A DNA stretch of 47,504 bases from a virus: positions 1-47,504 of IMG/VR virus record IMGVR_UViG_3300045996_001090, one strand, 5' to 3'. Numbering within the stretch: the stretch's first letter is position 1; every line of letters starts with the position of its first letter. Of this stretch, positions 2,924 to 47,504 are shown piece by piece. A program made the position numbers and the translations under genes. Below the pieces are notes generated by a model. It worked only from the letters and a program-made list of their open reading frames with translations, ran no database searches and was not told where the DNA came from.

Positions 2924-2938
2924 ACCAAGGAAAAGTTC

Positions 2939-4033
2939 ATGGATGATCTGGCGAACGGCGCCTCAAACGCGCCGGACGAAGGCATTTCCACGTCTGAGGC
3001 CGAAAGCTCGGCCCCGGCTCCCTCCGCTCGTGAGGCGCTCGAACGGGCGTTTTCCTCGGTTTCCGAGGCTTCCCCGCCGGCCGATCGCGGCGACGGTCGC
3101 GACACAATCGGCCGGTTCGCCGGAAAGGCGGCGGCCGAGGCTCCTAAGGTCGACGCTGCGGCCCCTCCGGCTGCGCCTGACGCGCAAAAGCCGGCCGAGG
3201 CGGCTCCTGCTGCTCCGACGCCTGGCGGGCCTCCTAGCCGCTTTACAAAGGCCGCGGCCGAGGCGTGGGGCACCGTCCCGGAAGTGGTCCGGGGCGAGGT
3301 CGCCCGGCTCGAGGCCGAGCTCACAAGCGGCCTGAAGCAGTACCAGGAGCGGTTCGAGCCGATTAAGCGCTTCGACGAAATGGCGCGTCAGAGCGGAACG
3401 TCGCTCGACAAGGCGCTCGAGCGCTACGTCAGCCTCGAGAACGTGCTCCGGCAGGACCCGGTGACTGGCGTTCTCCACGTTTTCCAGAATCTCGGGGTGA
3501 AGGACCCTGCAATGGCGCTGAACGCGATTGCGGCGCGCCTCGGGCTCGGACAGTTGTCGGGCGCACAGGCGCCGGCCGAAGGCGGCCAGGCGGACCCGCG
3601 CGACGCGACCATCCGGCAGCTACAGCAACAGATTCAGCAACTCGGCGGCCACGTCCAGCACGTCGGCCGCACCATCGCCGAGCAGCAGGCGGAAGCGGCT
3701 AAGCGCCAGATTTACGGCGAGGTCGACTCCTTCGCGGCTGCGCATCCTCGCTTCGATGAGCTCGCCGAGCACATCTCCGAAATGATTGAAACCGGGTACG
3801 CCAAAGGGCGGACTCAGGCTGAGAAATTGGCCGATGCTTACGCCAAGGCGGACCGGTTAAACCCGGCCACAGCGGCGCCAGCGTCGACCGCTCCCGCGGC
3901 GCCTCAAACGCGCAAGGCGGGCCTTACAATTACCGGCTCTCCAACCACTAGCGGCTCAAACCCGTCGACGGCTCGGACCGGTTCCACGCGCGACGCGCTT
4001 CGCGGCGCATTCGCGCAAGTCGGCCTCTCGTGA
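2939..4033 (+). CDS. Scaffolding (capsid assembly) protein, 364 aa
   Basis: SD-like AAGGAAAAG before the ATG. Ala/Pro/Glu-rich disordered N-half and helical, Q-rich C-half. Lies immediately upstream of the major capsid gene. Confidence 0.6.
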   Translation: MDDLANGASNAPDEGISTSEAESSAPAPSAREALERAFSSVSEASPPADRGDGRDTIGRFAGKAAAEAPKVDAAAPPAAPDAQKPAEAAPAAPTPGGPPSRFTKAAAEAWGTVPEVVRGEVARLEAELTSGLKQYQERFEPIKRFDEMARQSGTSLDKALERYVSLENVLRQDPVTGVLHVFQNLGVKDPAMALNAIAARLGLGQLSGAQAPAEGGQADPRDATIRQLQQQIQQLGGHVQHVGRTIAEQQAEAAKRQIYGEVDSFAAAHPRFDELAEHISEMIETGYAKGRTQAEKLADAYAKADRLNPATAAPASTAPAAPQTRKAGLTITGSPTTSGSNPSTARTGSTRDALRGAFAQVGLS

Positions 4034-5175: not shown

Positions 5176-5673
5176 ATGGCCTATGTCATCAACGAAAACC
5201 GTCTCGGTCAGCCGCTCATCACGGCGTCTGACGATTCGGCAAAAGTGCCTGTCGGCACCATCGTTCGCGCCAACGACCCGACTTACGGCGCCGGTGAGTT
5301 CATCTACCTCAAGGGCGTCGCCTCGACGGCGGTTGGCTCGATCGTGACCTATAACGTCACGACGCACCAGACCACGCTTTGCGCGGTCGGCGGCAATATC
5401 TCGATGCCGGTCGCCATCGCTATGTCGGCGAACGTCGCCGACAAGTTCGGCTGGTATCAGATCTCCGGCGTCGCCGTTGCCAAGAAGACCTGCACCGTGT
5501 CGCTCGCCGCCGCTGCCGCGGTCGGCGTTCTGACTACGGGTCTGGTTGCCGCTACGGGCTCGGGCAAGGAAATTCACGGCGCTCAGGTCGCTGCCGTCGC
5601 TTCGGCGACTGCCGGCCGCACGACCGTGCAGATCCTTATCAACCGTCCCCGTAAGCAGGGCCGCGTTACGTAA
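5176..5673 (+). CDS. Capsid decoration/cement-like protein, 165 aa
   Basis: SD AAAGGA upstream. Ala/Gly/Val-rich beta-type sequence directly after the capsid gene. Followed by a terminator. Confidence 0.45.
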   Translation: MAYVINENRLGQPLITASDDSAKVPVGTIVRANDPTYGAGEFIYLKGVASTAVGSIVTYNVTTHQTTLCAVGGNISMPVAIAMSANVADKFGWYQISGVAVAKKTCTVSLAAAAAVGVLTTGLVAATGSGKEIHGAQVAAVASATAGRTTVQILINRPRKQGRVT

Positions 5674-5688
5674 AGGACGAACTATCGG

Positions 5689-5719
5689 CGGGGAGCTCCG
5701 GCTCCCCGCTTCCTCTTTT
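5689..5719 (+). terminator. Rho-independent terminator after the capsid/decoration genes
   Basis: CGGGGAGC-TCCG-GCTCCCCG stem-loop followed by the T-rich tract CTTCCTCTTTT. Confidence 0.65.
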
Positions 5720-5731
5720 GCATGGTGATTG

Positions 5732-7111
5732 ATGCAGCTTCCATACAGCAATCTGCAACTGAAACACCAGAACCCCGGCGCGGCAATGCCGCTGATTTTG
5801 CCGGTCCACGTCATCTGCAATACGTCGGATGACGATATCCACGACAACATTCGCATCAATTCCCGGCGCCCTGGGGAGTGGCTGAAAACGGCTCCCGCAC
5901 ATGATGGCGTCGCGATTTTGTGCGGCTCGGGGCCAAGCCTCGCCGACACGCTGCCTGAGATACGGGCGGCGGTCGCGGCCGGCGGCACGCTGTTCGCCAT
6001 GAACGGCGCGGCGCGGTTCCTCGGCGAGCATCACGGGCTGCTGCCCGATTACCAGGTGATTATCGACGCGCGCGAGCAAACGGCCGATCTTGTCGCTCCG
6101 GCCAAGGCGCATCTGTTCGCCTCTCAGGTTCACCCGGAGTGCTTCCGGCGAGCGCCTGGCGCGCGCCTCTGGCATTTGCAGATTGGCACCATCGACGAGG
6201 TGCTTCCCGATTACGAGGACGACTATTGCATGATCGGCGGCGCGGCCTCGGTCGGCAATACCGCAACCTGCCTCGCTTTCGCGATGGGGTTTCGGAACCT
6301 CCAAATCTACGGCTTTGACTCAAGCCATCGCGACGGCCGCGGCCATGCCTTCGCGCAGCCGATGAACGACGGGGATCCCTGCGCCGTCGTCACCTTCAAC
6401 GGCCGCGAATACACGGCCTCACTCACGATGAAGCTGCAGGCCGAGAAGTTCCAGGAAACCGCGCGGGCGCTCGTCGATGCGGGCTGCGTCGTCGAGGTTC
6501 ACGGCTCCGGGCTCCTCCCGGATATGTGGAACGCGCCGGCCGAGGCTCTGAGCGAAGTCGCCAAATACGAGCGCATGTGGTCGCTCGATGCCTATCGCCG
6601 ATTCGCGCCGGGCGAGGACAGCGCCGAGCTATTCCTCGAAACGGTGAAGCCTGACGGGCTGGTGATCGATTTCGGCTGCGGCACGGGCCGCGGCGGCCTG
6701 GCGATCGCGAAAGCGGGCCTGCCGGTCGTTCTCGTCGATTTCGCGCGGAACTGCAGGGACGAGGCGGCGCGAGCGCTCCCGTTCGTGCAGCTCGATCTAT
6801 CCGAGCCAATGCCGCTCCGTGCGCCTTACGGCTACTGCACGGACGTGATGGAGCATATCCCGCCGGCCCAGGTCGAGGCGGTGGTCCGCAACATCATGGC
6901 GTCGGCCGAGACGGTGTTTTTCCAGATCGCCACGGCGCCCGACATGCTCGGCGCGCTGATAAACCAGCGGCTCCACCTTACCGTCAAGCCGCTCGCGTGG
7001 TGGTGGGAGCTGTTCGGGCGCCTTGGCTACGCCGTCACTTGGACACGCGAAACGGCCGATTACGCAATCCTCGTTGTTACCTCTACCGCTCAAACCGAAG
7101 AGAAAGCCTAA
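5732..7111 (+). CDS. Fusion protein: DUF115/MptE-like (Maf-type) domain plus class I SAM-dependent methyltransferase, about 459 aa
   Basis: N-half carries AILCGSGPSL and LQIYGFDSSH, typical of DUF115/6-hydroxymethylpterin-diphosphokinase-MptE-like proteins. C-half carries VIDFGCGTGRGG (methyltransferase motif I). ATG 5732 is used here; TTG 5729 is an alternative. Confidence 0.7.
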   Translation: MQLPYSNLQLKHQNPGAAMPLILPVHVICNTSDDDIHDNIRINSRRPGEWLKTAPAHDGVAILCGSGPSLADTLPEIRAAVAAGGTLFAMNGAARFLGEHHGLLPDYQVIIDAREQTADLVAPAKAHLFASQVHPECFRRAPGARLWHLQIGTIDEVLPDYEDDYCMIGGAASVGNTATCLAFAMGFRNLQIYGFDSSHRDGRGHAFAQPMNDGDPCAVVTFNGREYTASLTMKLQAEKFQETARALVDAGCVVEVHGSGLLPDMWNAPAEALSEVAKYERMWSLDAYRRFAPGEDSAELFLETVKPDGLVIDFGCGTGRGGLAIAKAGLPVVLVDFARNCRDEAARALPFVQLDLSEPMPLRAPYGYCTDVMEHIPPAQVEAVVRNIMASAETVFFQIATAPDMLGALINQRLHLTVKPLAWWWELFGRLGYAVTWTRETADYAILVVTSTAQTEEKA

Positions 7112-22881: not shown

Positions 22882-23123
22882 TGGAACTGCTCGTTTCTCT
22901 CCTCGGGCCGAAAGTGCTCGGGGCTCTCGGCGCAATGGCGGCGGCCGGCGTCGCGGTGCTGGTCGCCTATTTCCGCGGGCGCTCGGCCGGCAAGGCCGGC
23001 GAGCAGGCGCGCCAAGCGCAAGCGACGCTCGATCTAGTAGCCGATGAAAAGGCCGCGCGTGAGTCCGTCGAGGAACTCACGGCGGACGAGGCCAAGCGCG
23101 AATTATCAGAGTGGAGCCGCTAA
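22881..23123 (+). CDS. Membrane-anchored coiled-coil protein, 80 aa (i-spanin- or antiholin-like)
   Basis: N-terminal TM segment LGALGAMAAAGVAVLVAYF followed by a charged helical region. TAATG coupling to the upstream gene. Confidence 0.45.
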   Translation: MELLVSLLGPKVLGALGAMAAAGVAVLVAYFRGRSAGKAGEQARQAQATLDLVADEKAARESVEELTADEAKRELSEWSR

Positions 23124-23617
23124 GCCGCTCTTGCAAATTCTCCGAAGCAGGTTGCAGCCGCCTTCGCATAGGCGACGTGCGCTTCTTCCTTGGTAGCAAA
23201 GCGGCCCAGAAACCGCTTTGTGTCCCTGTGTTTGATCTGAGCAACCCACTTTTTTGAACTGCGAGTCAATCTGTCGAAATGGACGCCTTTGAGCCCGGAG
23301 GCGTTGTTGCGGCGAGCGCGTGTGTTCGCGCGATTCTGCGAGACGCTGGCGGGGCGCAAATTGCTCCACCGATTATTCAGTGGATCCATGTCGATGTGGT
23401 CTATCTGCGCCGGGGGCCATGATCCGGTCATCCACAGAAACGCGAGCCGCTGAGCGCCGTACTTGCGAGGGCGAAAAGTGATCACGCGGTAGCCGTTGCC
23501 GCTAATCGTTCCGGCCACTTGTCCCGCCTTCGCGCGCCCCTTGTTTACTCTCCAAGTGAAAACCCCGGTTTCGGGATCGTAGCTAACAAGTCGCCGGAGT
23601 TCATCGGCGGTTATCAT
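23120..23617 (-). CDS. HNH endonuclease with AP2 DNA-binding domain, 165 aa
   Basis: Strong SD AAGGAGG 6 nt before ATG 23617. QIDHIDMDPLNNRWSNLR is the HNH core. GVHFDRLTRSSKKWVAQIKHRDTKRFLGRFATKEEAHVAY is AP2-like. Visibly more A/T-rich than the flanks. Confidence 0.8.
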   Translation of the reverse strand: MITADELRRLVSYDPETGVFTWRVNKGRAKAGQVAGTISGNGYRVITFRPRKYGAQRLAFLWMTGSWPPAQIDHIDMDPLNNRWSNLRPASVSQNRANTRARRNNASGLKGVHFDRLTRSSKKWVAQIKHRDTKRFLGRFATKEEAHVAYAKAAATCFGEFARAA

Positions 23618-23640
23618 ATCTCGCCTCCTTGGTGGAAAAG

Positions 23641-23847
23641 ATGCGACAACTCCTTCCCGCTGCCGCGTTGTGCGCGGCGTTAACAGCCTGCCAGACGGCA
23701 CGCTCTCCGTCATCGGACGTGTGGTGCTTATCGAACCGCGCACACCGGCCATCCACTGAAGAAATTCGCGTGATGTCCCCTGACCGCGCGCGGCAGCTCT
23801 TGGCGATAAACCGGCTCGGCGCCAAGCGATGCGGGTGGGTCAAGTGA
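23641..23847 (+). CDS. Lipoprotein, o-spanin-like, 68 aa
   Basis: Lipobox LTAC in MRQLLPAAALCAALTACQ. Short mature part with conserved-looking Cys residues. Confidence 0.55.
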   Translation: MRQLLPAAALCAALTACQTARSPSSDVWCLSNRAHRPSTEEIRVMSPDRARQLLAINRLGAKRCGWVK

Positions 23848-28003: not shown

Positions 28004-28031
28004 AATATACCGGCGGAATTGCCGCTGTCAA
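28004..28031 (-). promoter_or_regulatory. Sigma70-type promoter for the minus-strand early operon
   Basis: On the minus strand, TTGACA (28031-28026), 16 nt, TATATT (28009-28004), about 25 nt upstream of the SD for the 27978 start. Confidence 0.55.
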
Positions 28032-28968: not shown

Positions 28969-28984
28969 CGCGCTCAAGAAAAAA

Positions 28985-29013
28985 CCCGCCGCCGGGGGGC
29001 CAGCGGCGGGTTT
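28985..29013 (+). terminator. Rho-independent terminator (A-tract upstream, T-tract downstream)
   Basis: CCCGCCGC...GCGGCGGG stem followed by TTT, preceded by AAGAAAAAA. Confidence 0.6.
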
Positions 29014-33888: not shown

Positions 33889-34005
33889 ATGGGCGAATAT
33901 CTCGACGCGGGAGCGATCATAGAGCTCACTGAGCTCTACGGCCTGGGCTGGTGTTTCGTCGCCACGGGCTCGGGTCCGTCCTACTCGTTCCGGCTTTTCT
34001 TTTGA
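33889..34005 (+). CDS. Possible small ORF, 38 aa, coupled to the recombinase gene
   Basis: Third-position GC is higher than in the overlapping recombinase-frame extension. The stop overlaps the TTG 34002 start (TTGA). Confidence 0.35.
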   Translation: MGEYLDAGAIIELTELYGLGWCFVATGSGPSYSFRLFF

Positions 34006-34982
34006 CGCTCCCGGTCCCGGTCGGCCACGTCCAGGACAACCGCGAGCTCCCCCTTTCCGAAGCCTTCCGCGACGCCTTCGCGGCGGCTGCTGATTACGCT
34101 GCAGGCGACAAGGCGGACTCGACGCGGGCGGCTTACGCCGCGGACCTGCGCGATTTCGAACGCTGGTGCGTCGTCGTCGGCGCCGAGCCGCTCCCGGCCT
34201 CGGTCGCCACGGTTTGTGCGTATCTTGCAAACCTGGCGCAACAGCGCCTCAAGGTTTCCACGGTCGACCGCCGAGCGGCGGCCATCGCATACGGGCATCG
34301 GTTCCGAGGGCTAGAGCCCCCTACCTCTGCCGAGCCGGTCAAGCGGGTGCTTAGAGGCATTCGCAGGCGGACCGGGGTTTCCGTTGAAGCAAAAGCTCCG
34401 GCAACCGCCCGCGCCATTTCCGGGATGCTCAAGCGCATCCCTGCTGACACTCTGACGGGGAAGCGAGATCGCGCGCTCCTGGCGATTGGTTTCGCCGCGG
34501 CGCTCCGGCGCTCCGAGCTCGTCGCGCTGACCGTCGAGGATTTCGAGCGGGCGCCGGAAGGCCTCCGCGTCCACATTCGCCGATCGAAAACAGACCAAGA
34601 TGCATCCGGCCACACTGTTCCTGTTCCGGCTGGCTCTCGCCTTCGTCCTGTGGCGCTGCTCGACGAGTGGCTCGCCGCGGCCGCCATCACGGCCGGGCCG
34701 GTATTCCTCGCCATTCGCAAGGGCGGGCGAATCTCCGACCGTGCACTAACGCCCCAGTCCGTCGCGCTGATCGTGAAGAAGTGGGCCAAGGCCGCGAAGC
34801 TCGATCCGAGGCTCTACGCCGGACACAGCTTGCGCGCCGGGTTCGTAACCTCGGCGCTCGAGCACGGCGCCGATCTGCTCAAGGTGATGGCCGTGACGCG
34901 CCATCGCGAAGTCAAAACGCTGCAAACCTACGATCGCCGGGCGCAAGCATTCAAAGACCATGCGGGGCGGGGGTTCCTGTGA
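34002..34982 (+). CDS. int: Tyrosine recombinase/integrase, Cre-like architecture, about 326 aa
   Basis: TRAAYAADLRDFERWC (SAM-like N-domain), LRRSELVAL, IRRSKTDQ, GHSLRAGFVT, LQTYDRR (catalytic Arg/His/Arg/Tyr context). The GTG 33951 start is possible but has a poorer coding signal. Confidence 0.8.
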   Translation: MTLPVPVGHVQDNRELPLSEAFRDAFAAAADYAAGDKADSTRAAYAADLRDFERWCVVVGAEPLPASVATVCAYLANLAQQRLKVSTVDRRAAAIAYGHRFRGLEPPTSAEPVKRVLRGIRRRTGVSVEAKAPATARAISGMLKRIPADTLTGKRDRALLAIGFAAALRRSELVALTVEDFERAPEGLRVHIRRSKTDQDASGHTVPVPAGSRLRPVALLDEWLAAAAITAGPVFLAIRKGGRISDRALTPQSVALIVKKWAKAAKLDPRLYAGHSLRAGFVTSALEHGADLLKVMAVTRHREVKTLQTYDRRAQAFKDHAGRGFL

Positions 34983-35640: not shown

Positions 35641-35895
35641 ATGGCTGCTCGGGCGCTCAAACCGCCGAGGGGCCGAGGGCGTCCTAAGGGCTCTCGGAAC
35701 AAGGTCACGGTCGAGCTAAAGGCCGCCATCCTCGAGGCTTTCGACACCGTAGGGGGCGGAAAATACCTCGCCGGCGTCGCTCGCGCTGATCCGCGGACCT
35801 TCTGCGCGCTCCTGGGCCGGGTGCTGCCCATGACGATTAAACAGACGGGCGACCTGTCCATCACGGTGCTGACCGGCGTGCCGCGTGGCGACTAA
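35641..35895 (+). CDS. Small terminase-like DNA-binding protein, 84 aa
   Basis: The N-terminal GRGRPKGSRNKVT motif is common in small terminase/DUF5681-type proteins. It is the first gene of the packaging module. Confidence 0.5.
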   Translation: MAARALKPPRGRGRPKGSRNKVTVELKAAILEAFDTVGGGKYLAGVARADPRTFCALLGRVLPMTIKQTGDLSITVLTGVPRGD

Positions 35896-36529
35896 GGTCC
35901 GGCTGATCCTGGGCGATTGCCTGGCAGAAATTAAGAAGCTCCGGCGGTCCATTGACGCGGTAGTGTCTGATCCTCCCTATGGGATTGGCTACGTCAAAGG
36001 CCCTGGCGGCAACCCACGCGCTGGCCGCTCTTGGTGCCGCCGAAACCATAGCAAGCCGGTCATCGGCGACGATCAACCTTTCGATCCGGCGCCGCTGCTC
36101 GCCATCGCACCGCACGTCATACTTTGGGGGGCGAACCATTACGCATCACGGCTCCCGCACGGCAGCTGGGTCGCGTGGGATAAACTCGACGGGCGCGAGC
36201 CGTGGGACTCGTTCTCAGATGTTGAGTTCGCTTGGTGTAACTGGCGCGGCAAGGATCGCATTGTCCGCCATCTGTGGAAGGGCGTTTGCACCGCCTCGGA
36301 GGTGGGCAAGCGCCGCCTCCATCCGACGCAAAAGCCCGTAGCGGTGATGCGCTGGTGCCTTGAACAATTACCGGCGTCCAGCCTGACCATCCTAGACCCC
36401 TACATGGGATCGGGCTCAACAGGGGTTGCGGCTGTCGAAATGGGCCTGAACTTCATCGGCATTGAGCGCGACCCGGCGTATTTCAAAATCGCGCGCGAGC
36501 GCATCGCGAGCGCCCGTGGCGACGGTTAG
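35885..36529 (+). CDS. DNA methyltransferase, N6/N4 beta-class (DPPY), 214 aa
   Basis: VVSDPPYGIGY (motif IV) is followed by HPTQKPV and DPYMGSGSTGVAAVEMGLNFIGIERD (motif I). This is a circularly permuted beta-class order, as in CcrM-like enzymes. Confidence 0.85.
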   Translation: MATKVRLILGDCLAEIKKLRRSIDAVVSDPPYGIGYVKGPGGNPRAGRSWCRRNHSKPVIGDDQPFDPAPLLAIAPHVILWGANHYASRLPHGSWVAWDKLDGREPWDSFSDVEFAWCNWRGKDRIVRHLWKGVCTASEVGKRRLHPTQKPVAVMRWCLEQLPASSLTILDPYMGSGSTGVAAVEMGLNFIGIERDPAYFKIARERIASARGDG

Positions 36530-37835
36530 TCTTGGTTATGAGTGCCGCCCGCAATTCGAGGCTTTTCACAGGAGGCGCCAACGCTGGGCGTGCCTCGTCG
36601 CGCACCGCCGGGCCGGCAAAACGGTCGCCTGCGTCGCGGACCTAATTGACGCTGCGCTGCGCTGCAACAAACCCGAGCCGCGCTTTGCGTATGTGGCGCC
36701 GCTCTACGTCCAGGCTAAGGACGTGGCCTGGGCCTACGTTAAGAAGTTCACGGCGGCGATCCCTGGCGTTGAGTTCAATGAGGCCGAGCTCCGGGTTGAC
36801 CTGCCCAACGGCGCACGGGTGCGCCTCTACGGCGCTGATAATTACGATCGCCTACGGGGCATCTACCTCGATGGCGTGATCCTTGACGAATATGCCGACT
36901 GGCCTCCGGCCGCTTGGTCGCAAGTGATCAGCGCGTGCCTGGCCGATCGGCAGGGCTGGGCGGTGTTTATTGGCACGCCAAAGGGGCGAAACGCCTTCTT
37001 CGAGATATGGGACCGGGCAGAAAGCGACCCGGATTGGTTCCGCCTCATGCTGCGGGCTTCGGAAACGGGGCTGCTGTCGGACGAGGAGCTTGACCAACAG
37101 CGGGCGACGAAAACGCCCGAGGAATACGAACAAGAGTTCGAATGCTCGTTCGATGCTGCGATCCTGGGCGCCTATTTCGGGCGCGAGGTCGCCGCGGCCG
37201 AGCGTGAAGGGCGCATCCGTACGGTTCCGTACCAACCGGGCCTCCCGGTCTACACGGCCTGGGACCTCGGCAAGGGCGCCAATATGGCGGTTTGGGTGTT
37301 CCAGACGCCGGGGCGCGAGCTCCACGTTATCGATTGCGTCTCGGGCCACCATGACGACGGCCTGCCGCAAGTCGCGGCGGTGCTCGATGGCAAGCCCTAC
37401 GCTGCAGACATCAAGCGCGATTGGGTGCCGCACGACGCGCGGGCGGTCGAGATAGGCACAGGCAAGTCCAGGGTCGAAACGCTCGCCGCTATCCGGCGTC
37501 GCCAGCCGTCGATCGTGCCGAACCACGGCGTTGACGACGGTATCAACGCGGTCCGCGTGTCGTTCAAGGATTGGTATTTCGACGCCGAGGCCTGCAAGTA
37601 CGGGCTCGAGGCGCTGCGGAATTATCGCGCCGAGTACGATGAAAAGGCGCGGACGTTCCGCAAGATCCCGAAGCACGATTGGACTTCACACTACGCCGAC
37701 GCTGCGCGGTACATGGCGATGGCCTGGCGCGAGATGGCGCCGGCGGCCGCGGCGCCGAAGCCTCGAGCTCTACCCGGTCAAGTGCTCCTGCCGGGCGCTC
37801 CGGTCCCGACGCGCGGCGTGCGCATCAAGATTTAG
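36516..37835 (+). CDS. terL: Terminase large subunit, about 439 aa
   Basis: Walker A HRRAGKT and Walker B VILDEYADW. C-terminal nuclease-type acidic residues. Lies upstream of the portal. GTG 36516 overlaps the methyltransferase end. Confidence 0.85.
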   Translation: MATVSLGYECRPQFEAFHRRRQRWACLVAHRRAGKTVACVADLIDAALRCNKPEPRFAYVAPLYVQAKDVAWAYVKKFTAAIPGVEFNEAELRVDLPNGARVRLYGADNYDRLRGIYLDGVILDEYADWPPAAWSQVISACLADRQGWAVFIGTPKGRNAFFEIWDRAESDPDWFRLMLRASETGLLSDEELDQQRATKTPEEYEQEFECSFDAAILGAYFGREVAAAEREGRIRTVPYQPGLPVYTAWDLGKGANMAVWVFQTPGRELHVIDCVSGHHDDGLPQVAAVLDGKPYAADIKRDWVPHDARAVEIGTGKSRVETLAAIRRRQPSIVPNHGVDDGINAVRVSFKDWYFDAEACKYGLEALRNYRAEYDEKARTFRKIPKHDWTSHYADAARYMAMAWREMAPAAAAPKPRALPGQVLLPGAPVPTRGVRIKI

Positions 37836-37951
37836 GCGATGAGGTAGCAGCGAAGCTCCGGAATGCGCTGCAAGCTTTCGGCCGCCTCGAGGCAGACGTA
37901 CATGCTGGCAAATTGAGCCACTAGCTGGGTCGCCGTCCAAAGCTCGATCAC
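37832..37951 (-). CDS. Antisense cassette ORF 3, 39 aa
   Basis: GGAG 7 nt before GTG 37951. Overlaps the terL stop by 4 nt (convergent). Sequence MIELWTATQLVAQFASMYVCLEAAESLQRIPELRCYLIA. Confidence 0.4.
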   Translation of the reverse strand: MIELWTATQLVAQFASMYVCLEAAESLQRIPELRCYLIA

Positions 37952-37954
37952 GTC

Positions 37955-38320
37955 CTAACTCCTCTCAGCGGACAACCGCTGAAACCCCGGCTGACCTGAT
38001 CCCTCACGCCGGCGCGGCGCTCCTGTTCGCGGGCGCCGCTCGCTTTCTTTCCTCTGCCTCTGCATGGCGACGCAAGCCGCGCCGATGCGAACTAGCAGCG
38101 TGTTGGGGTTCATTCCTAGCTGTGCCGCCAGCGCATCAGCGAACGCTTTTTCGACGTACCAGCCGCCGTCCCATCCGAGGGCGACTTGCGGGTTCATGCC
38201 CGCCTTTCCTTCTTCTTCAACCATAAAGGTGCCTTCCTTGAACGAGCCCGAAACACCGGCCGCGTCAAGCGTCGTGCGGATTTGCGCACCCTGCGTCAAG
38301 CCGATTGCTACCTCTCTCAT
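37955..38320 (-). CDS. Antisense cassette ORF 2, 121 aa (or 89 aa from ATG 38224)
   Basis: ATG 38320 is in ATGA overlap with ORF 1. The internal ATG 38224 has a strong SD (AAGGAAGG). The C-terminus is basic and disordered. Confidence 0.55.
   Translation of the reverse strand: MREVAIGLTQGAQIRTTLDAAGVSGSFKEGTFMVEEEGKAGMNPQVALGWDGGWYVEKAFADALAAQLGMNPNTLLVRIGAACVAMQRQRKESERRPRTGAPRRREGSGQPGFQRLSAERS
38222..38255. repeat. Imperfect direct repeat, copy 1 (partner 38395-38429; 31 of 35 aligned positions)
   Basis: CATAAAGGTGCCTTCCTTGAACGAGCCCGAAACA. On the minus strand it reads as SD plus ATG. Confidence 0.85.
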
Positions 38321-38397
38321 CCGAACCGTTCCCACAAGAGGAACGCCAACGCTCCGAAGCCGGCGATCGCGCCGCTACATTCGATAAATTCCAGCAT
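38317..38397 (-). CDS. Antisense cassette ORF 1, 26-aa hydrophobic peptide
   Basis: SD AAAGGAGGG 7 nt before ATG 38397. Sequence MLEFIECSGAIAGFGALAFLLWERFG. Confidence 0.3.
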   Translation of the reverse strand: MLEFIECSGAIAGFGALAFLLWERFG

Positions 38398-38429
38398 AAA
38401 GGCGCCCTCCTTTGAACGAGCCCGAACCA
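38395..38429. repeat. Imperfect direct repeat, copy 2
   Basis: CATAAAGGCGCCCTCCTTTGAACGAGCCCGAACCA. It spans the minus-strand ATG/SD and the first six codons of the tracked portal ORF. Confidence 0.85.
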
Positions 38430-40817
38430 CAAACCGAAGTGCTCGAGGCTGCTCGGCCTGCCACGTCGGCAAAGGTGTGGCTCGATCGCATTACCGAATC
38501 CTGCACCAAGTTTGAGAAGTGGCGCGAGCAATGCGCCAATCTCGACAAGCTGTATTCCAGGAACGAGCGCGCCGATAGCGCCGACCGCGAATATGCACTC
38601 TTTTGGAGCAACATCGAAGTCCTGAAGCCGGCGACGTATGCGAGGACGCCGGTTCCGGTGGTCGCGCCGCGCTTCAAGGACGGCAACGCGGTCGCGCGCG
38701 AGGCGTCGGAAACGCTCGAGCGGTGCCTCGTCGTACAGTTCGAACAGGCGGACCTTGACGGCCTGATGCGGGAAGTCCGGGACGACTTCCTGCGCTATGG
38801 GCGCGGAACGGCCTGGGTCCGCCTCGCCGGCGATGATGACGCGCTCGCGTTCGATGCCGTCGACCATCGCGATTTCTGCCATGAGCTCGGCCGCCGCTGG
38901 CGCGAAGTGACGTGGGTTGCTCGCCGGGCCTGGCTGACGCGGGATGACGGCGTTAAGCGGTTCGGCGATGCCTACAAGCGCGTGCCGCTGAAAAAGCGCG
39001 ATGAGAACGCGGCCATCCCTGATCGCGCCGACAAGGCGCCGGTTTGGGAAGTGTGGTCGAAGGCCGAGGGCTGCGTCTATTGGGTCGCTGAGGGCCTCGA
39101 TGATGAGGTTCTAGACCATAAAACGCCTGAGGAGCTCGGGCTCCTGCTGCGCGACTTCTGGCCGATGCCGAAGCCTGCCTATGGCACGCTGGTTCCTAAC
39201 TCGCTCCTGCCTGTCCCGGAGATTCGCCAGTACAAGGACCAAATCGAGGAGATTAACGAATACACGGCGCGCATTGCCGCGCTGTCGGACTCGCTCCGCG
39301 TGCGGGGTTTCTACCCGGCCGGCTCGGGCGATCTGAGCGAGGCAATCGAGGTCGCGGTCAAGAGCACTGACGATCGGGCGGTGCTGATCCCGGTTTCGTC
39401 GGCGGCGGCGATGGGCACCGGCGGCTTCGCCAACTCGATCGCCTGGCTCCCGGTCGGCGAGATTGCAAAGCTGGTCCAGGCGCTCGTCGAGCTCCGGCGC
39501 GTCGTCATCGATGACGTGTATCAAATCATGGGCATTGCGGACATTCTCCGCGGCCAAACCGATCCGAACGAGACCAAGGGCGCGCAACAGCTCAAGAGCC
39601 AATGGGGCTCGCTGCGGATGCGCGAGCGGCAGAACGAGCTCGTGAGATTCGCGCGCGACCTGACGCGCATCGGCGCCGAGATTATCTCAGAGAATTTCGC
39701 GCCCGAAGTGATTTTCGAAATGGCGCAGGTGCAGTTGCTGCCGGAAGCGGACAAGCAGCAGCTGCAGATGGAGATTCAACAGGCCGAGCAACAGGCGCAG
39801 CAAGCGGCGATGATGGCGCAGCAACAGGGCGGGCAGCCCCCTCCGCCTCCGCCGCCTCCGCCAAAGGCCATCCAGAAGCAACTCGAGGCGCCGTCGCAAG
39901 AAGAGGTGGCCGAGCTCCTGAAGAACGATCGGACGCGCGGCTTCGTCATCGAAATTGAGACCGATTCGACCATCCAGCCGGACGAGGACGCCGAGAAGGC
40001 GCGGCGCATCGAGGCGGTGACGGCGTTCGGCGGCTACCTTACGAGCGTTGCGCCGATTGTGCAGCAAATGCCCATGCTCGGCCCGTTTGTGGTCGAGGTG
40101 TTCAAGTTCGGCGCACAGGCGTTTAGGAGCGCGCGGCCGCTGGAGGCGGCAATCGACCAAATGGGCGAGGCCATCGAGGGCATGGTTGGCCAGCAACAGG
40201 GGCCGCCGCCCGATCCGCTGGCCGAGGCCAAGGCGCAGGCCGAACTAAAGCGCGTGGAGATTGAGGAAAAGCGCTTCATGGAGCTCGAGGGGCCAAAGGC
40301 CAAAGCCGAGCTCGATATCAAACAGGGTGAGCTCGAGCTGAAGCAACAGGAGCTTCAGCTCAAAGCCCGCGGCGAGGAGCGCGCCGACAAGGCGGAAGTT
40401 CGCGCCGATCGCGTCGAGGACCGCAACGACCGCGCGTTCATGCGCGACGGCTTCGCCATGCGTCGCGAGGCGACGAATAAGGACCGTGAGCACGGGCTCA
40501 AAGAGCGCGCGCAAACGCATACTGAAACCGCGCACCGCGACACGCTGCAGGACGGCAAGGCGGCCCGTGAGGCCGAGGACACGTTCCGCCGCGATGAAAA
40601 GGGCGTCCGCCCACGCGCCGAGACGGACGAGCGCGAAGCCGGCCGCGACCAGGCTCTATCCGCAATGGCGGATGCGCTCTCGAACATCAAAGAGACGCTC
40701 GATCAACCCCCTCGCGTGCGCCTGATCAAAGGCGCGGACGGTCGCACGGCCGAGGTCGAGCGCAACGGCGAGCGCCTTCCCGTCCGCCGTGACGGCAACA
40801 CCGTCTCGATAGGCTAG
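38412..40817 (+). CDS. Portal protein, up to 801 aa, with a long coiled/charged C-terminal extension
   Basis: Size and position next to terL. N-terminal WREQCANLDKLY...FWSNIEVLKPATYARTPVPVV pattern. The start could be TTG 38412, GTG 38439 or GTG 38475. Confidence 0.8.
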   Translation: MNEPEPQTEVLEAARPATSAKVWLDRITESCTKFEKWREQCANLDKLYSRNERADSADREYALFWSNIEVLKPATYARTPVPVVAPRFKDGNAVAREASETLERCLVVQFEQADLDGLMREVRDDFLRYGRGTAWVRLAGDDDALAFDAVDHRDFCHELGRRWREVTWVARRAWLTRDDGVKRFGDAYKRVPLKKRDENAAIPDRADKAPVWEVWSKAEGCVYWVAEGLDDEVLDHKTPEELGLLLRDFWPMPKPAYGTLVPNSLLPVPEIRQYKDQIEEINEYTARIAALSDSLRVRGFYPAGSGDLSEAIEVAVKSTDDRAVLIPVSSAAAMGTGGFANSIAWLPVGEIAKLVQALVELRRVVIDDVYQIMGIADILRGQTDPNETKGAQQLKSQWGSLRMRERQNELVRFARDLTRIGAEIISENFAPEVIFEMAQVQLLPEADKQQLQMEIQQAEQQAQQAAMMAQQQGGQPPPPPPPPPKAIQKQLEAPSQEEVAELLKNDRTRGFVIEIETDSTIQPDEDAEKARRIEAVTAFGGYLTSVAPIVQQMPMLGPFVVEVFKFGAQAFRSARPLEAAIDQMGEAIEGMVGQQQGPPPDPLAEAKAQAELKRVEIEEKRFMELEGPKAKAELDIKQGELELKQQELQLKARGEERADKAEVRADRVEDRNDRAFMRDGFAMRREATNKDREHGLKERAQTHTETAHRDTLQDGKAAREAEDTFRRDEKGVRPRAETDEREAGRDQALSAMADALSNIKETLDQPPRVRLIKGADGRTAEVERNGERLPVRRDGNTVSIG

Positions 40818-44017: not shown

Positions 44018-46485
44018 TGTACGTCGGACACGCTTTCGAAAGCGCCATTGCTGACGATCCGGCGTCTGCGGCTGCCGGCGAAGTGCTGCCCAGCCATTGG
44101 AACGCCGCGCACACCATCCACGGCTTTTACAACACCCTCACGGATGCGGCTGCGGCTGACATCCCGGCCGCGGTCCAGCACGTCACCACGGCCGGCTATT
44201 CCGCGGTAGGCGATGATGGCGGCGGCGGCTACAAGCGCCTTGCAGCGCACCCTTATACACTATGGGCCAGCGGCGACTTCACCCCCGGTTCCGAGCGGCG
44301 CAACGCGTCGGGCAATCTCTACCGGCTCACGACGCGCCCGGTCGGCGGCGTCGGCACGCTCACAAATTCGGTCCAGCCGACGCACCTGAGCGGCGAGACG
44401 GTCGGCGCGGACGGCTTCGGTTGGACGTTTATAGCGCAGTCGACGCGCTATTTCCGCTCGGCCGATCGGTACACGTCGGCCGAAGTGTGGGACACGACTA
44501 ACGGCGGCTATTGGAGTCTCGTCCCGACTGGCGGTGTTGTCCGCATTGAACAACTCGGCGGCGTCGCCGACTGGAACGGCTCAACCGGGACGGACAATTA
44601 CACCGCCATCATGGCGGCAGTTAACTGGATCATGTTTGATCCGGCCGCCAACACTGCCCAAGAGATAGCGCCGATCCTTGAGCTAGGGTACGGCAAGTAC
44701 AAGGTTGGGCAAACGGTTCACGTTACAAACGTCGTCAACATCCGCGGCAAGGTCGGGCATCTGCCCGATCCGTTTGGCCTAGGCGGCGCTACGCAATTAC
44801 ACTTCACGAACACGAGCGGTTCGATGTTCGTGTTCTATGGCAACAACGCCGGTAACGGTGGAGAAACCGGCGGACCATGGGGGGCGGGGCAGAACACTGG
44901 CGCGGCCTCAAGCTCGCGCATTGCTGACTTCACCTGCCACAATTCGTCCGGCGTCACGACGCGCGACCTAACCCGCCACGGAATCAATTACCGCTGCGCT
45001 ATGACAGCCGAGCGGATTGGCGTTTACAGCACGGCCGGGCATGGGCATTACATTCATGGACAGGCGGGGCATGGCGGCGAGCACGAAGGGAACTGCAACG
45101 GCTGGGAGCTAATAAGCTGCTTCGGGCATGAATGCCGTGGTCACTTTCTTAAGATCGAAGGGGCGGACGCCAACGGCGGGACCTCTTGGAAGTTCACGAC
45201 GCACGGCACAGTCGGGCTTGGCGGCTGCGGTATCTACGAGGGGCCGACTCTCGGGAACACCCACATTCAGCCGCAGATAACCGGCTACGGCAACATGGGG
45301 GTCAGTCACCTTAGTAAGCAGTACCAATATCTCGGCGGCGACTCGACAACCACGCCCGGCACTAACGATCTGATTTGGCATTACATTCGCGACGGTGGCG
45401 TTACGTCCAGCTTCCCCGCGTGGAACTCGGCTAACGACTACTCGCTATTCACGCTACCCATCCTCTGTCTAAGCTCTCAGACGCGGATTGTCGGCCCCTA
45501 CGTTGAGGGCGGCAACGTCAATTCGCATAGCCTAGGAATTGTGGATGGCGGTGTGGCGCCGTTTACGCGCTACACACCGGGGCCGAACACAAGCCAAAGC
45601 GTTGCCTACGGTGCTGTCACATGCGGCACAGGATTTGGTTCTTTCTACACATTCGCAGACCAGACAGGGGTCGCGAACACTCAGAACGGCAGTTCTACCT
45701 GGACCCGGTTTGGTGGCTCCCACATAACCGCTCAGTTTGACACTGGCGGCGGAGCTGCGTTCCTTACCTACCTGCGGCAAACTGACGGCGATAGCTCCCA
45801 TTATTGGGGCTATGCCTACCCCGACATAGTTCACATTAATCAGTCCGGCCGGTATTGGTGGGTTCAAACCACATCAGAGACGACCGAGGAGTTTGGGCGG
45901 GGGAGCGCCCAGCCTAATTATCTCCGCTTCAACGCATTCGGTATCGGCGGGCAGGATAATGCCGACCAGGCGCGCATCATTGGCTATCACAACGGGAAGC
46001 CGTCGTCGGGCGTTCATGCGCTCGGCGAGGTCTGGTTTCAGACTAACCCGACCGGCCACGGCGCGGCCGCCTATGTGTGCAAGACGACAGGCACGCCGGG
46101 CAGCTACTGCACAATTCCAGTGTTCGGGCTCTCATCCATAGAGCCTCAGAACGATGGCGACTGCGTGCTCGAAAATACGAGCAACACACAGCTCAAACTA
46201 AAATACCAAGGCTCGGACAGCACCGACAGGCAAATTGACTTCGGGCTAAGCACAACGGGCGAGGTCGCATCGCGGCCCGCTACGGCTCCCGCTGCTGGCG
46301 GGACGCTGTTCTACCGCGCGGGATCAACAGCGGCGCTCGGCATCTATTTCGGCTCGGGTGCGCCAACGGCATCGGCGGCGCAAGGCTCACTCTACATGCG
46401 GACCGATGGCTCGTCCACGTCAACGCGGGCTTACGTCAACACGGACGGCGGCACGACTTGGACTGCCGTAACGACGGCGGCGTAG
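44017..46485 (+). CDS. Tailspike / tail fibre, 822 aa
   Basis: N-terminal LPSHWNAAHTI anchor-type motif, GDDGGGGYKR, a long Gly/Asn/Thr-rich beta body, and a C-terminal GSLYMRTDGSSTSTRAYVNTDGGTTWTAV motif common in fibre tips. TTG 44014 is an alternative start. Confidence 0.75.
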   Translation: MYVGHAFESAIADDPASAAAGEVLPSHWNAAHTIHGFYNTLTDAAAADIPAAVQHVTTAGYSAVGDDGGGGYKRLAAHPYTLWASGDFTPGSERRNASGNLYRLTTRPVGGVGTLTNSVQPTHLSGETVGADGFGWTFIAQSTRYFRSADRYTSAEVWDTTNGGYWSLVPTGGVVRIEQLGGVADWNGSTGTDNYTAIMAAVNWIMFDPAANTAQEIAPILELGYGKYKVGQTVHVTNVVNIRGKVGHLPDPFGLGGATQLHFTNTSGSMFVFYGNNAGNGGETGGPWGAGQNTGAASSSRIADFTCHNSSGVTTRDLTRHGINYRCAMTAERIGVYSTAGHGHYIHGQAGHGGEHEGNCNGWELISCFGHECRGHFLKIEGADANGGTSWKFTTHGTVGLGGCGIYEGPTLGNTHIQPQITGYGNMGVSHLSKQYQYLGGDSTTTPGTNDLIWHYIRDGGVTSSFPAWNSANDYSLFTLPILCLSSQTRIVGPYVEGGNVNSHSLGIVDGGVAPFTRYTPGPNTSQSVAYGAVTCGTGFGSFYTFADQTGVANTQNGSSTWTRFGGSHITAQFDTGGGAAFLTYLRQTDGDSSHYWGYAYPDIVHINQSGRYWWVQTTSETTEEFGRGSAQPNYLRFNAFGIGGQDNADQARIIGYHNGKPSSGVHALGEVWFQTNPTGHGAAAYVCKTTGTPGSYCTIPVFGLSSIEPQNDGDCVLENTSNTQLKLKYQGSDSTDRQIDFGLSTTGEVASRPATAPAAGGTLFYRAGSTAALGIYFGSGAPTASAAQGSLYMRTDGSSTSTRAYVNTDGGTTWTAVTTAA

Positions 46486-46486
46486 C

Positions 46487-46825
46487 GTGGCCTTTCAACA
46501 GGTCGGCTTTCAGTCGAGCGGCTTTCAGGACGTCGGGCTCGGCCCTGGCGCAACCGTCATCCCGCCCCGCACTGGCGGCGGCTATCCCGATTGGTGGGAG
46601 GACGATGATCGGCCTTTCGACGCGTTCCCAAAGCGCAAGCGCAAGCCTGAGACAGAGCTCTCGGACCCGCGGGCTTCGATCGTCGACATCTACATGGATT
46701 TGACGGCGCCCGCGCCTCGGGCTGGGCCTGCGCCTCGTCCGAAGATCACGCCATACAGCAAGCGCGCGGCCGATCGGTTCTCGGCCGAGCTCGCGGCGTA
46801 CATGCAAAAACTGAGGGGCTTCTGA
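46487..46825 (+). CDS. Hypothetical protein, 112 aa (repeat copy of 2253-2591)
   Basis: Identical to the left-copy gene. Confidence 0.55.
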   Translation: MAFQQVGFQSSGFQDVGLGPGATVIPPRTGGGYPDWWEDDDRPFDAFPKRKRKPETELSDPRASIVDIYMDLTAPAPRAGPAPRPKITPYSKRAADRFSAELAAYMQKLRGF

Positions 46826-47157
46826 TGGGGTTTGTCGGGGGAATTGTCGGCGGTCGCTTCTTTGAGGGCGACGAGTATTTCGCGGCTCGCGAGATCGAGC
46901 GGAAGCGGTCGGCGCTCGCCGCTCCGCGCATCACGTCCGACTACATCGAGGGCGCGGGCTCCGCGGTTAAGTCGATGGTCGACGGCCGCATGTACGATTC
47001 GAAGTCGGCGCTGCGGCGTCACTACCGCGAGCGCGGCTACATCGAAGTAGGGAACGAGCGGCAAGAGCCGCCGCCAAAGCCAAAGCCGGATCGCAAGGCA
47101 ATTCGCAACAGCGTGGGCTCGGCAATGGTCCGCGCTGGCATTTCAGTCGACGGCTAA
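46825..47157 (+). CDS. Hypothetical protein, 110 aa (repeat copy of 2591-2923)
   Basis: Identical to the left-copy gene. Confidence 0.55.
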   Translation: MGFVGGIVGGRFFEGDEYFAAREIERKRSALAAPRITSDYIEGAGSAVKSMVDGRMYDSKSALRRHYRERGYIEVGNERQEPPPKPKPDRKAIRNSVGSAMVRAGISVDG

Positions 47158-47172
47158 ACCAAGGAAAAGTTC

Positions 47173-47504
47173 ATGGATGATCTGGCGAACGGCGCCTCAA
47201 ACGCGCCGGACGAAGGCATTTCCACGTCTGAGGCCGAAAGCTCGGCCCCGGCTCCCTCCGCTCGTGAGGCGCTCGAACGGGCGTTTTCCTCGGTTTCCGA
47301 GGCTTCCCCGCCGGCCGATCGCGGCGACGGTCGCGACACAATCGGCCGGTTCGCCGGAAAGGCGGCGGCCGAGGCTCCTAAGGTCGACGCTGCGGCCCCT
47401 CCGGCTGCGCCTGACGCGCAAAAGCCGGCCGAGGCGGCTCCTGCTGCTCCGACGCCTGGCGGGCCTCCTAGCCGCTTTACAAAGGCCGCGGCCGAGGCGT
47501 GGGG
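47173..47504 (+). CDS. Scaffolding protein, 5' part only, cut by the window end (repeat copy of 2939-3270)
   Basis: Identical to the start of 2939-4033. Confidence 0.6.
   Translation, partial: MDDLANGASNAPDEGISTSEAESSAPAPSAREALERAFSSVSEASPPADRGDGRDTIGRFAGKAAAEAPKVDAAAPPAAPDAQKPAEAAPAAPTPGGPPSRFTKAAAEAW

Follow-up and report, generated by a model that had tools for sequence, protein, structure and literature searches.

The window analysed here (47,504 nt, the whole of IMG/VR virus record IMGVR_UViG_3300045996_001090) is a whole phage genome, terminally redundant and equipped with an integrase, and is not an integrated prophage. In this genome, the gene for the large terminase (terL, 36462-37835, plus strand) is separated from the portal gene (38412-40817, plus strand) by a spacer of 576 bp, which has no counterpart in any relative compared. 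The longest terL ORF begins at TTG 36462 and matches Pfam Terminase_6N (1.3e-10) and phrog_2 (3.8e-42); the public gene call is a 439-aa protein starting at GTG 36516, the exact product of which is present in the protein collection, and the best terL identity found anywhere is 68%. The portal gene starts at a TTG, matches phrog_12082 (1.7e-193), aligns from residue 1 onward with relatives, including Brucella Tb-like portals (tblastn; N-terminal alignment), and lacks a real Shine-Dalgarno (SD) sequence (-3.4 kcal/mol). Only 3 nt past the terL stop there is a plus-strand mini-ORF, ATG-AGG-TAG (37839-37847), which is a candidate vestige of an ancestral downstream start, given that in relatives the portal or the inserted gene starts here; judged from its position it may be such a vestigial start, a chance ATG at that spot having a probability of ~10%.

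The spacer carries three ORFs on the minus strand, and these ORFs, the ATGA overlap joining the first two, the spacing of 14 nt from the portal start, and a direct repeat, all described in an earlier sequence-only reading of this DNA, can be read directly in the sequence. ORF1 (38317-38397, minus strand, 26 aa) starts at an ATG that has AAAGGAGGG in front of it at a spacing of 7 nt, and 14 nt separate its ATG (38397) from the portal TTG (38412). The pairing of its SD (-12.1 kcal/mol) is the strongest measured (the 1st percentile of random sequence is -9.8), and the motif AAGGAGG occurs only twice in the genome. The peptide is hydrophobic (GRAVY 1.10), with a 17-residue hydrophobic stretch (KD 1.78). 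ORF2 (37955-38320, minus strand) is 121 aa long when read from ATG 38320 (SD -6.0 kcal/mol), which overlaps the ORF1 TGA; the same frame offers GTG 38335, TTG 38299, ATG 38224 (89 aa) and ATG 38197 (80 aa) as other starts, and ends in a basic tail (residues 98-121, pI 12). ORF3 (37832-37951, minus strand, 39 aa) begins at a GTG served by the SD GAGAGGAG (-8.6 kcal/mol), and its TAA (37832-37834) overlaps the terL TAG (37833-37835). ORF2 and ORF3 are in frame with each other, one TAG and one codon (GAC) apart, and each product (121 aa and 39 aa) has an independent gene call in the public annotation.

ORF tiling alone is within chance in DNA of 65% GC, one-strand ORF coverage being 93% in the real gap and 87 ± 8% in shuffled gaps. 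Coding was assessed with a 3-periodic Markov (codon-periodicity) model that had been trained on the genes of the phage itself, using leave-one-out windows. The ORF2 core (38030-38299, minus strand) scores +15.9, against 17.4 ± 7.7 for true windows and a best wrong frame that is never that high, and is the best-supported coding stretch within the gap, with per-block scores above zero from ~38287 to 38096. ORF3 scores +6.4 (true-gene windows, 7.5 ± 4.4), a value which a wrong frame reaches in 0.9% of windows. All plus-strand ORFs of the gap score like wrong frames (-15 to -29), and the 107-aa, 109-aa and 49-aa "MNEPET" ORFs were therefore discarded as genes. The codon-position GC pattern agrees with minus-strand coding, and the GC skew of the gap is -0.153, compared with +0.018 ± 0.05 (minimum -0.104) in 86 plus-strand-gene windows. 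The possibility raised by the sequence-only reading against itself, that a plus-strand ORF (38064-38387) would be the real gene, is removed by this flip in skew together with the wrong-frame-like coding score. The minus strand encodes at least one real protein gene, ORF2, with a core at codons ~8-97, and probably a second one, ORF3, whose start is the GTG and not an ATG. The gene-like signal does not cover the whole of ORF2: the C-terminal tail (37958-38029, minus strand) has a coding-unlike composition (-10.5, the 0.1 percentile of true windows), and the full-length frame reaches no more than +1.9, a value that falls between the distribution of true frames and that of wrong ones.

A different view of the same DNA takes the gap as a non-coding regulatory spacer, in which a plus-strand terminator ends the terS-terL unit, a promoter restarts transcription at the portal and the minus-strand ORFs are shadow ORFs. 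There is a terminator-like structure on the plus strand (38014-38055), with 9 bp (8 of them G-C) followed by a pyrimidine/T-rich tail, which lies antisense inside the ORF2 tail and whose hairpin (38014-38039) is listed second among 28 terminator-like sites in 19.5 kb (28-47.5 kb); in Brucella phage Tb a terminator is annotated immediately ahead of the portal gene, and one relative (locus L025) has a 154-bp junction insert without a convincing ORF. The chance-level tiling, the lack of homologues and the local GC minimum of the region, at 38200-38500, also fit a spacer of this kind. However, the stability of the hairpin is ordinary for its composition (dG -20.7, z = -0.8), a plus-strand promoter pattern was not found, the skew is inverted over the entire gap, and neither the ORF2 core, unmatched by any wrong frame of the training genes, nor the rarity of the ORF3 score among wrong-frame windows would be expected of shadow ORFs, which makes a purely regulatory spacer unlikely. 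Rfam (E <= 1) and tRNA scans of the region were empty.

For the direct repeat, the 31 of 35 aligned positions first reported were confirmed, and the similarity extends to 38216-38256 versus 38389-38430 (36 of 42 columns, one 1-nt indel), with a local score of 25.5 against 8.0 ± 1.1 (maximum 13) in 500 shuffles and an in-window blastn E of 3e-7. The window contains just these two copies, and the pattern was absent when sought in IMG/VR. Copy A (38216-38256) holds, on the minus strand, the SD GGAAGG, ATG 38224 and the first codons and, on the plus strand, a pseudo-portal start (TTG AAC GAG CCC GAA ACA). Copy B (38389-38430) consists of two interleaved divergent initiation regions, namely the SD AAAGGAGGG (38405-38413) with ATG 38397 on the minus strand and AAAGG (38398-38402) with the portal TTG 38412 on the plus strand. 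At both minus-strand starts the repeat spans the first three codons (ATG-GTT-GAA and ATG-CTG-GAA). Two larger rearrangements were rejected: a diverged 173-bp tandem duplication, because the flanks of the copies are no more alike than shuffles, and an inversion through the 13-nt inverted repeat at 37759/38438, since its centre is the palindromic CTCGAG and the terL and portal ends would have been inverted too. Between the two repeat copies lie two copies of GCGTCAAGC, 31 nt apart (38262-38301; CTTGAC on the minus strand), which are conceivable as an operator or as a -35 element but do not exceed chance: the window holds 3 copies (1.04 expected), and we estimate the probability of a local pair somewhere in the gap at ~0.1-0.2.

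In the arrangement that we slightly favour, ribosomes would load at the ORF1 SD, read the 26-codon leader and re-initiate at the ATGA of ORF2, with ATG 38224 or 38197 as possible secondary starts. ORF1, which had been presented as the first ORF of the unit, is not supported as a gene by its composition (coding score -3.2), and is either a leader ORF coupled to ORF2 through the ATGA or something that arose incidentally when the initiation region was duplicated. Nor is the internal ATG 38224 as strong a start as had been proposed, its anti-SD pairing being -7.6 kcal/mol compared with -12.1 for ORF1. The coupled three-ORF arrangement competes closely with one in which ORF2 is short (80-89 aa) and is preceded by ~190 bp of divergent regulatory DNA. 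In its strict form, in which only the short ORF2 (from ATG 38224 or 38197) and ORF3 are real and 38225-38411 is a divergent regulatory region shared with the portal and holding the cassette promoter, this second arrangement is possible, at clearly less than even chances. It accommodates the negative scores of ORF1 and of the long frame over its opening 16 codons, the low GC of 38225-38411 (59.4%, compared with ~65% in the flanking genes), the strongest negative skew (-0.207) in that same segment, and the fact that repeat copy A supplies ATG 38224 with its own SD; two 9-mers containing CTTGAC also lie upstream of this ATG, but they have no accompanying -10 element. Additionally, the coding signal is already positive at ~38287, upstream of ATG 38224, the strongest SD precedes ORF1 and not the short ORF2, and an ATGA overlap is a typical coupling arrangement, all of which weigh in favour of the longer, coupled unit.

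The choice between these two arrangements also bears on the promoter, which according to the earlier reading must lie inside the portal gene. That conclusion requires ORF1 to be part of the transcript; with a start at 38224 or 38197, ~190 bp of low-GC, non-coding-like DNA would be free for a promoter inside the gap, and the promoter would then not be inside the portal gene. Consensus scans, which are insensitive in high-GC hosts, detected no sigma-70-like promoter within 500 nt on the plus or the minus strand, on the latter even when the criteria were relaxed, and the search for a convincing minus-strand terminator returned only one downstream candidate, a weak hairpin (37662-37648). The cassette mRNA would be antisense to the late transcript and, if ORF1 is included, to the portal initiation region as well; we infer from this that it is expressed at times when the late operon is off, in lysogeny or early infection. 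The more specific proposal of expression from the prophage finds no support, the window being a free terminally redundant genome in which neither a promoter nor a minus-strand terminator was detected.

The earlier impression that the products resemble no recognised family was borne out for ORF2 and ORF3, which are both orphans, without a homologue in any library searched. A word-indexed search of 5.8 billion proteins returned, for either protein, only this contig's own public gene calls; an exhaustive HMMER search with ORF2 against 1.84 billion representatives gave only two matches at E~1e-4, to repeat proteins, which were judged spurious; and tblastn with ORF2 and ORF3 against phages and plasmids gave nothing at E <= 10. 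Neither protein matched PHROGs or PDB sequences, the three minus-strand ORFs matched no PADLOC or NCBIfam family at E <= 10 and no Pfam family at E <= 1 (E <= 10 for ORF2 constructs), and exact-sequence look-ups of ORF1 and of the portal start variants among public gene calls found none. The gap DNA, compared with ~100 related loci and with the rest of the window, is similar only to its own repeat. A kinship of ORF2 with small junction proteins of two relatives (L012 and L014) was also considered and rejected: the pairwise match (9/18) is at chance level, and ORF2 was absent among the matches listed for an HMM of that family (5 members) run against 910 six-frame fragments of the window. The L012/L014 family itself is the N-terminal module of an ORF of at least 548 aa in locus L007, which reaches the end of the locus.

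Structure prediction provides a weak lead on ORF2. In single-sequence AlphaFold2 (AF2) models, the 89-aa form is predicted with a pLDDT of 71, against 51 for the 121-aa form, which is too poor and was dropped; this difference is a further point in favour of the short ORF2. In the 89-aa model, residues 21-60, taken in 10-residue blocks, have a mean pLDDT of 79-92, and the predicted elements are a strand (23-25) and two helices (26-36 and 40-63; add 32 for the 121-aa numbering). Foldseek returned no significant match for this model (best E = 0.33-10), the sub-threshold matches including the SeqA N-terminal domain (probability 0.72), ribbon-helix-helix (RHH)/CopG proteins and TacA antitoxins (probabilities of 0.09-0.72 over these groups), and the turn "LGMNPNT" fits by eye only the G-x-S/T/N turn of the RHH pattern, a strand and two helices in about 45 aa. 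With its basic tail and this predicted beta-alpha-alpha core, ORF2 may be a small RHH-like DNA binder, presumably a regulator, a membership for which Pfam gave nothing at E <= 10 and the structural matches have E >= 0.33.

The shared frame of ORF2 and ORF3, with only a TAG and a GAC between them, raises the question of whether the cassette is a decaying remnant of one inverted gene of ~162 codons, interrupted by a nonsense codon and with nothing functional left. That the intervening tail is non-coding-like and that both proteins are orphans would suit such a remnant. Nevertheless, chance alone puts two neighbouring ORFs of one strand in a common frame in one case out of three, ORF3 has its own SD and GTG right after the stop, gene-like periodicity is kept on both sides, and the ORF2 searches gave no intact longer homologue; on balance, we find decay of a single gene improbable.

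The organisation of the start region could also be read as a type I toxin-antitoxin-like or antisense module, in which ORF1 is a membrane toxin and/or the leader RNA blocks portal initiation and late translation. In favour of it, ORF1 is small (26 aa), with the 17-residue hydrophobic stretch and the very strong SD, the mere 14 nt between the divergent starts force the leaders to overlap, and the portal TTG has no SD. On the other hand, ORF1 has no coding signature, the structure of the leader region is ordinary (z = -0.3 and +0.7), Rfam, PADLOC, Pfam and NCBIfam gave no match, and a promoter was not found for either RNA; in particular, a dedicated antisense small RNA with its own promoter and terminator was not detected by Rfam (E <= 1), promoter scan or folding. 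We hold this to be very unlikely, and the broader suggestion of a toxin-antitoxin, abortive-infection or exclusion module likewise found nothing to lean on in PADLOC, Pfam, NCBIfam, PHROGs or PDB. A related, and in our judgement still improbable, idea is that the 42-bp unit is a two-faced initiation module, presenting the SD-less portal TTG and, 14 nt away on the opposite strand, the strongest SD-ATG of the genome, that the cassette leader, complementary to the portal initiation region over its full length, would act as a compact antisense switch silencing portal and late structural translation as long as the cassette is on, and that the duplication made both ORF1 and the N-terminal extension of ORF2. 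If true, ORF1 and this extension would capture a gene in the course of being born through duplication of a junction.

The terL-portal gap had been described as normally tiny, which is wrong for this clade. In a first survey of 21 related loci with both genes, 7 gaps are of 9 bp or less and 14 range from 50 to 2613 bp (the 50-bp gap being that of L028), and 12 of these 14 larger gaps carry plus-strand ORFs; gaps of 9 bp or less are also found in three other loci (L100, L101, L103) and in Rhizobium phage RHph_I3_18 (9 bp). Junction inserts occur in about two thirds of the related loci that were surveyed, every insert being on the plus strand. Of the relatives nearest in terL (65-68% identity), some lack an insert and the others have a 325-aa ART-PolyVal gene; further relatives have 76-aa and 104-aa plus-strand junction genes, and Brucella phage Tb has three genes (Tb_09-11) plus its annotated terminator directly upstream of the portal; the cargo thus spans 57-aa proteins up to the ART-PolyVal enzyme. 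Judged from these comparisons, the junction is a hot spot, or hyperplastic site, in the alphaproteobacterial Tb/RHph_I3_18-like podophage clade. In three relatives the inserts are flanked by duplicates of the terL 3' end, including the SD and the ATGA (L003, L004 and L010; 24 nt at 92%, 28 nt at 89% and 94 nt at 98%). By analogy, we infer that the direct repeat described above would be a recombination scar, left when the cassette was added through short junction homology. On one genome, a scar and a functional repeat are inseparable, the scar being the simplest reading. The repeat would then not be purpose-built, and the two minus-strand starts of the form SD-ATG-(V/L)-E and the pseudo-portal start inside ORF2 would be its side effects. 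Gene gain at this site would leave duplicated translation-initiation junctions, a recombination signature built of SD and start sequences.

Taken together, we consider it fairly probable that the spacer is a lineage-specific, moron-type insertion of accessory genes at a gene-acquiring junction, with the cargo inverted. The proposal that it is a moron made or remodelled by local duplication fits in both its parts, in that the insert is missing from relatives and junction duplicates flank inserts in the nearest clade. As a category the cassette is an ordinary, already known sort of phage cargo, and its own content is new; if this reading is true, it is one more orphan cassette in a phage hot spot, mainly of catalogue value. 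With its cargo inverted, its divergent starts interleaved and a portal TTG that lacks an SD, it nevertheless makes a small testable case of antisense interference between cargo and late genes.

Morons are reportedly defined from HK97/HK022 comparisons as extra genes inserted between conserved neighbours. They are typically expressed while the late operon is silent, and there are precedents for morons oriented against it. The present cassette differs from them in having no detected flanking promoter or minus-strand terminator, and in filling the gap to the last base while overlapping the signals of its neighbours. It resembles them in being extra DNA between two conserved genes that are adjacent in relatives, from which it is absent, in its small cargo and in its distinct composition (GC of 0.615, where the flanking genes have 0.649 and 0.648, and the inverted skew). 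The relatives' own inserts (Tb_09-11 and those of L003, L004, L012, L014, L098, L104 and L105) occupy the same site and hold mostly small unknown genes, but are co-oriented with the late operon, and none is homologous to ORF1, ORF2 or ORF3. In the shuffling described for T4-type phages, promoter and stem-loop motifs (PeSL) border small orphan genes, which are gained, lost or exchanged when these motifs recombine with one another (Arbiol et al. 2010, PMC2839356; PMC4122927). Here too a short repeated motif borders small orphan genes in a hyperplastic region; however, the motif, as in L003, L004 and L010, is a translation-initiation junction and not a promoter with a stem-loop, and is present in two local copies. 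The early promoter, terminator stem-loop and many copies that characterise PeSL were not found, the SD/start junction occurring twice in the window and not at all in IMG/VR. The immI region of P22, embedded in the late region, encodes the RHH repressors Arc and Mnt and features divergent transcription and an antisense RNA. The cassette has no antirepressor gene nearby, no significant match to Arc, Mnt or CopG, and neither operators nor promoters that we could identify; what it would share with immI is a possibly RHH-like small gene running against the late operon and overlapping divergent control regions.

The gap between the terL stop (37835) and the portal start (38412) holds three minus-strand ORFs, and all the sequence elements named in the sequence-only reading were found on inspection. 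ORF1 (38317-38397) encodes a hydrophobic peptide of 26 aa, with AAAGGAGGG seven bases upstream of its ATG, which lies 14 nt from the portal TTG. ORF2 (37955-38320, 121 aa) is joined to ORF1 by an ATGA junction and contains an internal ATG (38224) that would give an 89-aa product, while ORF3 (37832-37951, 39 aa) starts at a GTG with GAGAGGAG upstream and ends in a TAA overlapping the terL TAG. ORF2 and ORF3 share a frame, with one TAG and one codon between them. This tiling is not in itself evidence of coding, since in dinucleotide shuffles of the GC-rich gap three or fewer one-strand ORFs cover 87 ± 8% of it.

Coding potential was scored with a 3-periodic second-order Markov model that had 21 long window genes as its training set; calibration left out one gene at a time. 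The ORF2 core (38030-38299, minus strand) scored +15.9, against 17.4 ± 7.7 in equal-length windows of true genes, a score that the best wrong frame never attains, and ORF3 scored +6.4 (true windows 7.5 ± 4.4; 0.9% of windows have a wrong frame scoring this high). Taken together, the first 32 codons of ORF2 give an ambiguous score (+1.6), with positive signal already from about 38287, and both its C-terminal 24 codons (-10.5) and ORF1 (-3.2) are unlike coding sequence. The plus-strand ORFs of the gap (107, 109 and 49 aa, the last starting at the duplicated pseudo-portal start), which might have been the real genes, scored -15 to -29 and were rejected. The codon-position GC pattern also favours the minus strand, the GC skew of the gap is -0.153 (mean +0.018 and minimum -0.104 in 86 equal-sized windows of plus-strand genes), and the contig's public annotation arrived independently at the same two products, of 121 and 39 aa. 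Our conclusion is that the sense strand of the gap is the minus strand, that ORF2 is a real gene and that ORF3 probably is one.

The Shine-Dalgarno (SD) sequence of ORF1 is the strongest measured, and the genome has just one AAGGAGG besides the copy in this SD, upstream of a free-standing HNH endonuclease gene (23120-23752, minus strand; phrog_99, 5e-69), which may be another mobile insertion. The internal start of ORF2, previously taken to be equally strong, pairs at -7.6 kcal/mol versus -12.1 for ORF1. The case for ORF1, as yet unproven, is this strong SD together with the ATGA coupling to the weak-SD start of ORF2. We lean only slightly towards translation that begins at the SD of ORF1 and is coupled into ORF2, over a short ORF2 preceded by a 190-bp divergent control region. 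Upstream of ATG 38224, between the two copies of the direct repeat, stand two copies of GCGTCAAGC (38262-38270 and 38293-38301, 31 nt apart); the window has three in all where 1.04 are expected, which is not significant once multiple testing is allowed for. A scan of both strands across the gap and the first 500 nt of the portal gene turned up no sigma-70-like promoter, and Rfam gave no match.

A different explanation of the gap is that late transcription is punctuated here. It is kept alive by a plus-strand hairpin with a T-rich tail (38014-38039), antisense in the non-coding-like tail of ORF2 and second in the list of terminator-like sites in 19.5 kb, and by the annotation of punctuation just here in Brucella phage Tb, although the hairpin is no more stable than shuffled sequences. 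The strongest terminator-like hairpin of the scanned 28-47.5 kb (28982-29013, minus strand; 14 bp with a T-run) and an 11/12 sigma-70-like promoter about 1 kb downstream on that strand (28004-28031) are probably the borders of leftward early units.

In a collection of 5.8 billion clusters, ORF2 and ORF3 matched nothing but the public gene call of the same contig, and neither had a match in Pfam, PHROGs, PADLOC or NCBIfam. ORF2 gave no tblastn match in phage and plasmid collections and no significant match to PDB sequences; its two matches (E~1e-4) in a set of 1.84 billion representatives were to repeat proteins and were discarded as homologues. By these searches, both products are orphans. ORF2 is a basic protein (pI 9.8) whose tail is rich in Arg. 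The AF2 model of its 121-aa form is poor (pLDDT 51), and that of the 89-aa form has a strand-helix-helix core (block-mean pLDDT 79-92 over residues 21-60). Foldseek returned nothing significant, with weak matches recurring to the SeqA N-terminal domain (prob 0.72), RHH/CopG proteins and TacA antitoxins; as these matches are weak, a ribbon-helix-helix-like DNA binder is a lead and not a result. We infer a nucleic-acid-binding role for ORF2 and expression of the cassette while the late operon is off. The idea of a toxin-antitoxin, abortive-infection or exclusion module found no support.

The phage is a metagenomic contig of 47,504 bp (GC about 65%, nearly every gene on the plus strand), whose ends are identical over 3,270 bp (1-3270 and 44235-47504), giving a unit genome of 44,234 bp; the assembly could be circular or concatemeric, or the ends could be a long direct terminal repeat. 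Lacking host flanks, the contig is not an integrated prophage; the phage is probably temperate. A RecE-like exonuclease is also encoded. A tyrosine integrase (33951-34982) lies directly upstream of the packaging module, in which a small terS-like gene (35641-35895) and an N6/N4 DNA methylase (35885-36529, overlapping the longest terL ORF) precede terL (36462/36516-37835) and portal (38412-40817), all on the plus strand. Both terL and portal are confidently identified and akin to those of Brucella Tb-like podophages, Rhizobium phage RHph_I3_18 and many uncultured alphaproteobacterial phages and prophages. The portal protein has a Q-rich stretch followed by a nine-proline run (residues about 455-490) and a long C-terminal extension of high charge (650-801), neither covered by the Brucella phage portal alignments, which stop near residue 627.

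The terL-portal gap had been presumed normally tiny, which is wrong in this clade: among 21 related loci holding both genes, it is at most 9 bp in 7 and 50-2,613 bp in 14. Rhizobium phage RHph_I3_18 has a gap of 9 bp. The best terL identity to the window anywhere is 68%. The closest terL relatives include three loci with no insert (L100, L101 and L103), and the closest, L098 (68%; 5305-6282), shares with L099 a 325-aa ART-PolyVal (ADP-ribosyltransferase) gene between terL and portal. The junctions of L104 and L105 hold 76-aa and 104-aa genes, and that of Brucella phage Tb three genes and an annotated terminator. All ORF-bearing inserts of the relatives are plus-strand and unrelated to ORF1, ORF2 and ORF3, and the gap of the window has no DNA-level match.

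Other cargo was seen in these loci. L104, a related 40-kb phage contig whose 76-aa junction gene matches a 'tail fiber' PHROG, carries a HicA/HicB toxin-antitoxin pair (2381-3152, minus strand) just upstream of the packaging genes, antisense cargo near terminase though outside the terL-portal junction. One small-protein family lies in the gap of some phages and just after portal in others (L012 3773-3949, L014 3810-3983, L006 6067-6324, L008 6124-6303, L007 8192-9838); in L007 it makes up the N-terminal part of a longer ORF (at least 548 aa) extending to the locus end. In a prophage of an alphaproteobacterial MAG (L025), a 154-bp junction insert (3801-3956) lacks a convincing ORF; an apparent inverted repeat surrounding GGCGCGCCAAAGGCGCG may be a small repetitive element.

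The direct repeat described from the sequence (31/35) is confirmed, its full extent being 38216-38256 and 38389-38430 (36/42 with one indel), with a local alignment score of 25.5 against 8.0 ± 1.1 in shuffles. It takes in the first three minus-strand codons too (M-V-E and M-L-E), its flanks are unrelated, and no further copy exists elsewhere in the window or in IMG/VR. The portal N-terminus (NEPEPQTE...) aligns with MAEP... and MAVEPTQD... of the relatives, which start at ATG (GTG in Brucella Tb), the window having a TTG without SD. An ATG-AGG-TAG mini-ORF lying 3 nt past the terL stop, where the downstream gene canonically starts, may, tentatively, be a vestige.

The likeliest reading of the gap is a moron-like cargo cassette, specific to this lineage and inverted, in a junction that is hyperplastic. 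The proposed moron built or remodelled by local duplication fits this reading; the repeat itself would be a scar of junction-homology recombination, the SD-ATG duplication being incidental. In the nearest clade (L003, L004, L005, L010, L015 and L016, the last with an uninterrupted junction), each inserted gene follows a duplicate of the terL 3' end, CGAGGCGTAAGGATCAAGATATGA (SD and ATGA start). Such duplicates flank plus-strand inserts in L003 (3327-3350/3544-3567; 24 nt, 92%), L004 (1419-1446/1636-1663; 28 nt, 89%) and L010 (2824-2917 and 2980-3073; 94 nt, 98%), from which it follows that gene gain at this junction typically leaves duplicated initiation junctions. The repeat of the window is most simply the same kind of feature as the duplicates of its relatives, on the portal-proximal side. 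The main value added by this work is this pattern of hot spot and junction duplication in the clade.
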